From assembly GCF_003612165.1 (NCBI RefSeq), contig NZ_RAWK01000089.1, forward strand, positions 1 to 32,310: a stretch of DNA of 32,310 nt, given 5' to 3'. The position numbers and the translations under genes are program-made. This document shows, in pieces, positions 27,827 through 28,822 of the stretch; the stretch's first letter is position 1, and each line of letters opens with the position of its first letter. A model generated the notes under the pieces. The model was given only the letters and a program-made list of their open reading frames with translations. It did not search any database and was not told the DNA's origin. This DNA is from Corallococcus aberystwythensis (GTDB lineage Bacteria > Myxococcota > Myxococcia > Myxococcales > Myxococcaceae).

Positions 27827-28822
27827 TCAGACGATGCGCTGCAACTCCTGCGTCAGCATCTCCTCCAGGTGCCGGATGTTCCGGTAGACGAGGCACCGGT
27901 AGCTGGACACGTCGAAGCGCAATTCCTTCACGTCGCGCACCAGCATCAGGGTGGGCTTGCCGCGTCCCCAGGCATAGCCCACCTCCAGATAGACATTGGG
28001 GTTCGCCAGGGACAGGTCCGCGATGACGACCTTCGCGGTGTCGATGCGGTCCCGGATGCGCTGGATGATGGGACCGTCGAAGACGGCCTGGTCCACGCGC
28101 TCGCACAGCAAACCGGACGCCTTCACGGGGTTCAGGATGCCGTAGTGGTAGGTGTCCTCCAGCTCCGGCGCGAAGGGCATCGCCACGAAGGCATGGGGCT
28201 TCTCGTTGGAGTTCGCGCCCGCGGAGGCCATGGGCAGCGCCTGGACGAAGCGGGACGTCCGCAGGACGCGGAAGCCCGTGGCCCCCATCAGCGGCTCCAC
28301 CCCCGGCGTGAGCCCCAACCCCAGCGCCATGGCCTTGCGCAGCCGCTCCACGCGCTTGGGGTTCAGCTCCACCACCGTGATGCGCTCCAGGCCACGCGGC
28401 CCGCTGCCGCGCTGGAACGCGTCCACGAAGCCGCCCACCAGGGCCAGCACGGCCTCGTCCTCGTCCAGGCCGTAGTTGGGGCCGTGCACGGTGCACGCGA
28501 GGTGGCGCACCTCGTTCCGGGGCTCCAGGAGCTGGAGCGCGCGCACGGAGAACTGGCGGATCTCGTGGTAGCCGAACTGCCGCAGCCGCACCGTGCCCAG
28601 GAAGAGCACCAGGGGCGCGCTCAGGCTCTTGCGCGTGTCGATGAAGCGATGGTCCCCGGGGAGCAGGTCGAAGGCGTCCATGGCGACGCCCGCCGCCTCC
28701 AGCCGGCGTGACACCGCGCCGTCCGCCCCGTGGAAGCCCTGCGCGTACTTCAGCAGCACGGCATCCGCGGCCGTCTCTCCCACGTCCCCCAGGTCCACCA
28801 CGACGTCCAGCGTGTCTCCCAT
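27827..28822 (-). CDS. macro domain (divergent) fused to nucleoside 2-deoxyribosyltransferase-like (NDT/TIR-like fold) domain
   Basis: N-terminus LDVVVDLGDV...ADAVLLKYAQGFHGADGAVSRRLEAAG ... HLACTVHGPNYGLDEDEAVLALV is collinear with macro domains (YmdB/Af1521-like), but NAAN is replaced by LKYAQ. C-terminus HAFVAMPFAPE ... AKVVIADLSLANPNVYLEVGYAWGRGKPTLML matches the NDT-family pattern (YLAGPF ... D.GTAFE.GYA..GKP). No signal peptide. Standalone gene. Confidence 0.75.
   Translation of the reverse strand: MGDTLDVVVDLGDVGETAADAVLLKYAQGFHGADGAVSRRLEAAGVAMDAFDLLPGDHRFIDTRKSLSAPLVLFLGTVRLRQFGYHEIRQFSVRALQLLEPRNEVRHLACTVHGPNYGLDEDEAVLALVGGFVDAFQRGSGPRGLERITVVELNPKRVERLRKAMALGLGLTPGVEPLMGATGFRVLRTSRFVQALPMASAGANSNEKPHAFVAMPFAPELEDTYHYGILNPVKASGLLCERVDQAVFDGPIIQRIRDRIDTAKVVIADLSLANPNVYLEVGYAWGRGKPTLMLVRDVKELRFDVSSYRCLVYRNIRHLEEMLTQELQRIV

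Follow-up and report, generated by a model that had tools for sequence, protein, structure and literature searches.

The gene at positions 27827-28822 on the minus strand of a 32,310-nucleotide stretch of Corallococcus aberystwythensis DNA (contig NZ_RAWK01000089.1; the whole stretch is here called the window) encodes a protein in which two nucleotide-related domains are joined. On profile and model evidence, the N-terminal half is predicted to be a highly divergent macro domain, and the C-terminal half a DRHyd domain belonging to the clade of predicted N-glycosidases of the nucleoside 2-deoxyribosyltransferase (NDT)/MilB/Rcl type, sister to TIR. The two are obligate partners in a large family of proteins, in which the macro-like pocket is the constant element, whereas the catalytic Glu of the DRHyd domain is often lost when a TIR domain or an adaptor is attached. 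The protein may thus be a two-domain glycosidase effector coupled to NAD+ and ADP-ribose, a proposal whose chemistry we infer and to which we give about even credence. The main interest of the gene lies in its cryptic macro clade, in the complementarity of TIR and DRHyd, and in the presence of an orthologue in the tractable bacterium Myxococcus xanthus.

The open reading frame (ORF) is complete, with 331 codons and a stop, and its start Met coincides in alignment with that of the orthologues. Full-length homologues are found at 52-97% identity in Corallococcus, Myxococcus, Pyxidicoccus, Citreicoccus, Archangium, Hyalangium and Vitiosangium, the closest being those of Corallococcus exercitus/carmarthensis (97% amino acid identity), and the M. 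xanthus orthologue is MXAN_3123. The GC content at third codon positions (0.93) is similar to that of the surrounding genes, and the sequence reads as that of a real gene under purifying selection. Direct reading of the protein reveals neither a signal peptide, in line with an earlier sequence-only reading of this gene, nor a transmembrane segment; the product is most likely a cytoplasmic two-domain enzyme. In an AlphaFold2 model built with 30 homologues (mean pLDDT 83), the macro-fold domain (residues 1-190, positions 28253-28822, minus strand) and the DRHyd domain (residues 207-331, positions 27830-28204, minus strand) are separated by a linker (residues 191-206, positions 28205-28252, minus strand) that is predicted to be disordered, with pLDDT <50. 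Yet A199, A201 and G202, in an A-T-A-G stretch of this linker, are conserved across Myxococcaceae.

Macro folds bind or process ADP-ribose. In the predicted structure, the N-terminal half shows the three-layer alpha/beta/alpha arrangement of this fold, and a Foldseek comparison with the whole PDB returned single-domain macro proteins, including E. coli YmdB, with TM scores of 0.65-0.73 (target-normalised). At the sequence level the Pfam Macro model gave no match even at E<=10, either for the target or for 17 family members, NCBIfam gave none anywhere in the target, and a PDB profile search with this half found no macro match; a Ppx/GppA match in that search (E 0.56) is spurious. The relation to macro domains emerged only with a broad family profile (Neff 4.8). 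Local hhalign aligned this profile with a small macro profile, made of E. coli YmdB from its genome record and of SARS-CoV-2 Mac1 and Af1521 sequences, with a probability of 84% and an E value of 7e-6 over 151 columns, and with YmdB alone with a probability of 43% (E 2.6e-4), while controls with a reversed profile and with the DRHyd profile stayed below 1%. The narrow alignment A2 reached a probability of 7% with YmdB over 27 columns. The paired blocks are GDV with GDIT, ADAVL with VDVIV, G-A-D34-G-A-V with G-V-D35-G-A-I, and LACTVHGPNYG with VAFPAISTGVYG, so that the collinearity with macro domains proposed from the sequence alone is reproduced.

The signature of the domain consists of D20, K25, G32, D34, Y85, H113-G114 and G118-L119-D120-E121-x-E123. 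According to the low-identity profile alignment, D20 falls on the position of the Asp that contacts adenine in macro domains and Y117-G118 on the Tyr-Gly of macro loop 2, and the G-x-x-G32-A-D34 stretch (starting at G29) is aligned with the macro GGGG-V-D35; the register of the alignment is uncertain by 3 residues. In one gapped alignment, D34 stands opposite YmdB D35, the catalytic Asp of MacroD-type enzymes. K25 (codon 28748-28750, minus strand) is an invariant Lys at or near the NAAN position in the YmdB alignments, and D120 (codon 28463-28465, minus strand) is an invariant Asp right after the loop-2 Gly, in G-L-D-E-x-E; both codons were checked. The proposal that LKYAQ replaces the catalytic NAAN motif holds in part: the NAAN asparagines have no counterpart in this half, but the exact position of LKYAQ is uncertain by up to 3 residues, as two alignments differ.

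The C-terminal half matches Pfam Nuc_deoxyrib_tr (PF05014) with an E value of 3e-5 and 24.5 bits, below the gathering cut-off of 28.8 bits, and this family is present in the precomputed annotation of some orthologues. The PADLOC 'TIR' effector model PDLC00733 matches the same half at E 1.6e-13, while the Pfam TIR, TIR_2 and ThsB_TIR models have no match in the target. Comparison of the domain model retrieves MilB (13.5), NDTs (12.5, 11.9), Rcl (11.4) and many TIR domains (10-12), in keeping with the Rossmann-like NDT/Rcl/MilB fold. The sequence match to MilB in the PDB is weak (E 0.11) and sets NPNVYLEVGYAWGRGKP opposite SPGTHVEIGWASGMGKP; E280 lies opposite the Glu of the MilB HVEIGWA motif, with its E-x-G core. 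This residue (codon 27983-27985, minus strand, checked), which occupies the position of the catalytic Glu in MilB/NDT/Rcl-type enzymes within the core N274-P-N276-V-Y-L-E280-V-G-Y-A-W-G, is invariant in the alignment of Myxococcaceae. Both the NDT-family core and the Glu of the E-x-G motif had been recognized in the sequence-only reading, and profile and structure comparisons agree with it in assigning the two halves to macro and DRHyd/TIR-related folds. By fold, the protein belongs to the macro and DRHyd superfamilies, although neither Pfam family recognizes it at its curated threshold, and the two-domain match is far beyond chance. No solved structure in the PDB contains both domains (best query-normalised TM 0.42 with Foldseek) and no paper describing the architecture was found, in agreement with the sequence-only reading, which named no well-characterised system of this kind.

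The extent of the family was evaluated by searching 1.84 billion proteins with a profile of the N-terminal domain, which retrieved 1,023 representatives of 50%-identity clusters, 278 of them at E<=1e-30. Both domains, the macro-like one followed by DRHyd, are present in about 105 of the best 148 representatives; since most of the others are truncated metagenomic fragments, the macro-DRHyd combination can be regarded as an obligate pair. As the macro half is invisible to Pfam and NCBIfam, any annotation that these roughly 1,000 clusters carry is limited to 'nucleoside 2-deoxyribosyltransferase' or 'TIR domain protein'. No literature pairing a deoxyribohydrolase with Macro was found, and, as far as found, the obligate pair has no earlier description. 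The two components are known separately, the macro domain as a sensor of ADP-ribose signals in type II Thoeris and NDT/DRHyd as an immune effector in retron Ec86 and STAND systems.

An extra N-terminal part occurs in about 45 of the best 148 representatives. Among 58 extended forms, Pfam recognizes TIR_2 in 38, EAD7 in six, EAD1 in three, and bDLD1, CHAT, Hsp70 and HTH in one each. In at least three cases (P0174, P0184 and P0247) EAD7 is inserted inside DRHyd, between its halves. The two fused forms with readable larger surroundings lie beside STAND NTPases: the CHAT-fused form is encoded about 500 bp downstream of an nSTAND1-WD40 gene, and the Hsp70-fused form in a same-strand array with NACHT-FGS, Tubulin_2 and CHAT genes. 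The EAD7 form has a dispersed neighbourhood in which no system lies close by, and the TIR-fused forms have no conserved neighbour and thus look like single-gene units. EAD and bDLD domains have been described as adaptors that recruit effectors to STAND, vWA-MoxR and GTPase conflict systems of multicellular prokaryotes, among whose effector or second-messenger-generating domains DRHyd is listed (Kaur et al.; PMC7159879, PMC8195603, PMC9503650). The fusion partners and STAND neighbours therefore mark the pair, in the relatives of the target, as an effector module of conflict systems. The target itself is close to the TIR-fused forms: its pair shares 49% identity with the pair of P0128, which bears TIR_2, and 50% with that of P0125, the nearest standalone representative from another cluster. 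The pairs that retain the Glu fall in one similarity cluster in which standalone, TIR-, adaptor- and CHAT-fused forms are interleaved, indicating that a common pair has acquired or shed an N-terminal TIR several times. Viral contigs yielded no relative, and matches in PHROG are restricted to the DRHyd half, with function unknown, the macro half giving no significant match (best E ~0.1); an origin from phages or a counter-defence role was rejected on these grounds.

The conservation of the two halves differs. In an alignment of 86 diverse full pairs (the target and 85 cluster representatives), K25, Y85 and D120 are present in 86/86 sequences, T111 and G114 in 85/86, D20 and G32 in 84/86, G118 in 83/86, H113 in 82/86, D34 in 81/86, and E121 and E123 in 79/86, as compared with 65/86 for E280. 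All architectures share the macro signature with hardly any variation, and the best conserved polar residues of the entire protein lie in the macro pocket. The earlier suggestion that the loss of NAAN points to binding rather than hydrolysis does not follow, given this conservation and the position of D34 on the catalytic Asp in one alignment; judging from the alignments, a catalytic macro domain appears just as possible as one that only binds its ligand.

The DRHyd Glu, in turn, depends on the architecture. E280 is retained in 45/46 standalone proteins (replaced once by L), in 15/31 of those with a TIR-sized N-terminal extension (replaced by Q ten times and by K, H, R, S, L and G) and in 3/7 of those with an adaptor-sized extension of about 90 residues (replaced by G, L, I and T). 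The NPNVYL-E-VGYAWG motif aligns without gaps, so that the loss of E280 is not an alignment artefact, and the flanking N-P-N decays along with the Glu. The difference in retention between standalone and TIR-fused forms has a Fisher p of 3e-7, a value that overstates independence since most losses fall in one TIR subclade and only about four independent losses are counted. The main subclade that has lost E280 retains the Glu of its TIR S-x-W...E motif. As E280 is kept where DRHyd is the sole glycosidase and often lost when TIR is present, the two domains look interchangeable and probably act on the same substrate. Bacterial TIR domains have been described as NAD+ specialists (PMC9503650), which makes NAD+ the best guess for DRHyd as well, ahead of the (d)NMPs of MilB and Rcl. 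The complementary pattern of a Glu that is dispensable with a fused TIR and of an invariant macro pocket suggests that DRHyd and TIR would do the same job on NAD+ with the macro domain as their indispensable partner, a concrete and testable hypothesis.

In Myxococcaceae the gene is vertically inherited and stable, as a single-gene unit. A synteny block comprising genes for an Lnb_N protein, the target, a D-Ser dehydratase-like enzyme and S9 and S13 peptidases is kept in Corallococcus, Myxococcus and Citreicoccus. The target is 69.5% identical to its M. xanthus counterpart (neighbours 69-78%) and 97% identical within Corallococcus (neighbours 86-98%), while in Archangiaceae the gene is found at a different location. 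A one-genome-per-species collection contains 258 stretches that encode a relative. Outside Myxococcaceae the distribution is patchy, always as a single-gene unit; beyond Myxococcota, relatives with 40-50% identity are scattered among Acidobacteriota, Binatia, Chloroflexota, Gemmatimonadota and Bacteroidota, together with a Nostocales cyanobacterium, several Proteobacteria and a Methanosarcina assembly. Some database labels call for caution. An orthologue in BNCN01000010.1 (L036), titled Comamonas sp. KCTC 72670, shows 69% identity, the level of Myxococcus species, and the assembly may be mislabelled or contaminated; three stretches titled 'uncultured Enterobacterales' (L059, L060 and L066) carry Myxococcota-like copies at 49-51%, the first two being apparently duplicate contigs within one metagenome-assembled genome.

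A search for partners gave a negative picture. Clustering of neighbouring ORFs at 19 distant loci revealed only lineage-local synteny (ThrE, amidase, rubrerythrin, PCMT). RtcA, an RNA 3'-terminal phosphate cyclase, is encoded in Archangium lansingense (L002, 6866-7939, plus strand) on the same strand and 61 bp upstream of the orthologue; this adjacency was not seen in the other lineages examined, and RtcA was discarded as a partner, as was the divergent cNMP-binding gene next to the target, which is conserved only within Corallococcus. We conclude that no operon partner exists. In particular, a TIR (ThsB) gene was found neither among the window genes scanned (a few ORFs were unscanned) nor beside orthologues, and the neighbours scanned include no CD-NTase (cyclase) gene, no STAND or vWA-MoxR core gene and no reverse-transcriptase domain; the target itself carries no EAD or Death-like adaptor. 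Rfam families, including msr/msd, are absent from the window, as are tRNAs, integrases and compositional anomalies, and the reading of the window as a defence island or mobile element was abandoned for this reason. The link to conflict systems that had been suggested from the sequence thus applies to the relatives, with their TIR_2, EAD1, EAD7, bDLD1, CHAT and Hsp70 fusions and nSTAND1/NACHT neighbours, and not to the target's own locus. The expected defence island is not there, the gene being syntenic and vertically inherited with no TIR, cyclase or STAND neighbour, and the idea of a signal sensor with a linked generator finds no signal-producing partner in any lineage examined.

In the mechanism that we propose, the DRHyd domain would cleave, through E280, the N-glycosidic bond of NAD+ or, less likely, of another nucleotide, and the macro pocket would bind an ADP-ribose-type ligand and couple it to the glycosidase activity. 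Most probably, the macro domain would be a gate that switches the glycosidase on, for instance upon ligand-driven dimerisation; alternatively, it would chemically process the ADP-ribose product. A gate of this kind is plausible since NDT-type enzymes need dimers for activity (bioRxiv 10.1101/2023.08.16.553469). Their active sites are completed across the dimer. The Macro sensor of type II Thoeris ThsA (PMC11204291; bioRxiv 10.64898/2025.12.03.692087) and the NDT-like effector of retron Ec86 (bioRxiv 10.1101/2023.08.16.553469) are precedents for the two parts. A role in immunity or cell death would be consistent with the company kept by the relatives, and in Myxococcaceae the gene has become fixed as a vertically inherited single-gene unit with no linked signal generator.

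Several points weigh against this proposal. The losses of E280 are concentrated in one subclade, as mentioned above, and the mapping of the macro pocket relies on a low-identity profile alignment and not on superposition. MilB, Rcl and NDT, the closest solved relatives of the DRHyd domain, have nucleoside monophosphates or nucleosides as substrates, not NAD+. The housekeeping surroundings, the synteny and the neighbour-like divergence of the gene are unlike those of typical mobile defence genes, and the lack of a linked signal-generating partner in all lineages examined weakens a pure sensor-to-effector model. In addition, no mention of MXAN_3123 was found in the literature.

The alternative that survives best is that of a two-step enzyme, in which DRHyd or TIR would make an ADP-ribose intermediate and the macro domain, as the core enzyme, would use K25, Y85, H113, D120, E121 and E123 to convert it to the final signal or toxic metabolite. 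This is a serious possibility, albeit a minority one. No feature of the family is better conserved than the polar signature of the macro domain, with three residues present in all 86 pairs, and D34 can be placed opposite YmdB D35. In four proteins that carry an adaptor-sized extension and whose DRHyd domain is dead (P0156, P0219, P0245 and P0254), there is no other candidate catalytic centre; moreover, such an enzyme requires no linked signal generator, which fits the absence of conserved neighbours. On the other hand, known macro enzymes are hydrolases of ADP-ribose esters and conjugates, and we know of no documented role of macro domains in maturing a product. The NAAN asparagines of MacroD-type enzymes are absent, the invariant residues could be ligand contacts or structural elements, such as a K25-D120 salt bridge, and no downstream receptor is encoded nearby. 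Between the two roles of the macro domain, we slightly favour the gate, which has the stronger precedent (ThsA-Macro, SLOG-SIR2, TIR-SAVED and TIR-STING) but no linked signal generator, over the second enzyme, which can do without a partner and accounts for both the invariant polar residues and the dead-DRHyd forms but has no biochemical precedent.

A more far-reaching version of the proposal, which we put forward only tentatively and regard as unlikely, would see in the cryptic macro domain a new and possibly catalytic clade, with its invariant K-Y-H-D-E-E set, that forms a self-contained single-protein immune module with an NAD+ glycosidase, for which DRHyd and TIR would be interchangeable. 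In the TIR-macro-DRHyd proteins, the counterparts of the Thoeris generator, sensor and effector would then be united in one polypeptide, and Myxococcaceae would have fixed a TIR-less core copy, perhaps for cell death in development or kin conflict. Why a social bacterium keeps this module as a stable core gene is directly approachable through MXAN_3123 in the genetically tractable M. xanthus.

The stability of the gene also brings up a housekeeping function in Myxococcaceae, in which an Rcl/MilB-like N-hydrolase of (d)NMPs or NAD derivatives would be combined with a macro domain that clears ADP-ribose by-products, in salvage or detoxification and with no conflict function in these bacteria. 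Vertical inheritance, a conserved chromosomal position, an ordinary substitution rate, neighbours such as peptidases and the D-Ser dehydratase-like enzyme, the absence of tRNA, RNA or mobile-element marks nearby, and the structural proximity to MilB, NDT and Rcl are all consistent with this view. We consider it plausible, given this stable context, though less probable than the two readings above. Against it, the family was never found in a salvage operon and its neighbours vary between families; furthermore, TIR-fused proteins are among the closest relatives beyond the clade, fusions to EAD, bDLD, CHAT and TIR and adjacent STAND NTPases occur in the family, and its distribution among phyla is patchy.

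Much less probable is that the protein erases signals or sets their threshold, the macro domain capturing ADP-ribose-derived messengers made by unlinked TIRs and DRHyd removing the base, as a guard against autoimmunity in a TIR-rich social bacterium. A conserved core gene with no linked generator would suit this role, and fusion to TIR could provide self-limitation. Signal erasers, however, are usually found in viral contigs, in which no homologue of this family was found, and the macro half has no significant counterpart in PHROG. The reported richness of myxobacteria and other multicellular bacteria in conflict systems speaks for a guard of this kind, but EAD1 and EAD7 have been described as effector-recruiting adaptors (PMC7159879). 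Finally, a purely structural or oligomerising macro-fold domain that binds no nucleotide, as in leucyl aminopeptidases, in an otherwise regulated NDT-like enzyme is very improbable: one family member matches Peptidase_M17_N weakly (E 0.13) and Pfam Macro has no match, but the alignment to true macro domains keeps the GD..D strand motif, the Gly-x-x-Gly-x-Asp of loop 1 and the Tyr-Gly of loop 2, and the near-invariant polar residues cluster at positions of the macro cleft.

A glycosidase effector coupled to a macro domain, as preferred here, would by analogy resemble the sensor/effector proteins of Thoeris, CBASS and STAND-type systems, yet it can be placed in none of them. Type II Thoeris ThsA combines a Macro domain with a transmembrane effector and senses His-ADPR made by a TIR protein, whereas no thsB-like TIR gene adjoins the target or its relatives, the predicted effector is a soluble DRHyd glycosidase and not a membrane domain, Pfam Macro fails to recognize the divergent macro domain, and the TIR of the fused relatives is in the same polypeptide. 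The DRHyd conflict systems (STAND, vWA-MoxR and EAD-coupled; Burroughs et al. 2015; Kaur et al. 2020, 2021) use the same domain clade and share with the relatives of the target the fusion partners EAD1, EAD7, bDLD1, CHAT and TIR as well as STAND neighbours; the target differs in having neither EAD adaptor nor STAND neighbour and in being vertically inherited, and no mention of an obligate macro partner was found in the literature on these systems. Retron-Eco1 (Ec86) also uses an NDT-like N-glycosidase as immune effector, with an activity tied to dimer or filament formation (bioRxiv 10.1101/2023.08.16.553469), but the target locus has no reverse transcriptase or msr/msd RNA, and domain partner and regulation differ.

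Similar distinctions apply to the other systems. In comparison with TIR-SAVED and TIR-STING (CBASS Cap12-type sensor-effector fusions) and with the PADLOC model PDLC00733, the target has no CD-NTase nearby and a macro, not a SAVED or STING, sensor fold, and its glycosidase lies on the DRHyd branch and not on the canonical TIR branch. The MilB CMP hydrolase, Rcl/DNPH1 and the nucleoside 2-deoxyribosyltransferases are single-domain metabolic or biosynthetic enzymes, in which the stretch before the Glu contains Ser/Thr, replaced in the target by the invariant N-P-N. Compared with MacroD, YmdB and Af1521, the target lacks the NAAN asparagines and has another invariant set, namely K25, Y85, H113, D120, E121 and E123.

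As for the surroundings of the gene, the target is flanked by a convergent gene for a secreted right-handed beta-helix protein and by a divergent gene for a protein with two cNMP-binding domains. The 205-bp intergenic region between the target and the latter (28823-29027) presumably contains the promoters of both genes; no sigma-70-like promoter was found in it. The region contains one terminator-like hairpin, at 28927-28904 on the minus strand, 5' of the target start codon (2 sites found against 0.4 expected). The beta-helix/NosD-like gene (26647-27813, plus strand) ends 13 bp from the target, and its presence varies: C. exercitus SDU142 (L009) and M. xanthus (L001) lack it at this position, and C. 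coralloides (L011) has a copy with 71% identity. Other nearby genes encode OmdA, the Lnb_N protein, the D-Ser dehydratase-like enzyme and the S9 and S13 peptidases, and more distant ones an M1 peptidase, an SDR, a LysR regulator and others.

Two further genes of the window deserve mention. The 771-residue ORF at 15304-17616 on the minus strand contains Major Vault Protein repeats (Vault, Vault_2, Vault_3 and Vault_4) and an MVP shoulder domain, and, judging from these domains, encodes a bacterial protein homologous to the one that forms the shell of eukaryotic vaults; no literature joining major vault protein with myxobacteria was found. The gene at 8580-10283, also on the minus strand, encodes a LysM domain together with a C-terminal domain like that of the type VI secretion protein VgrG3, probably one that targets peptidoglycan.

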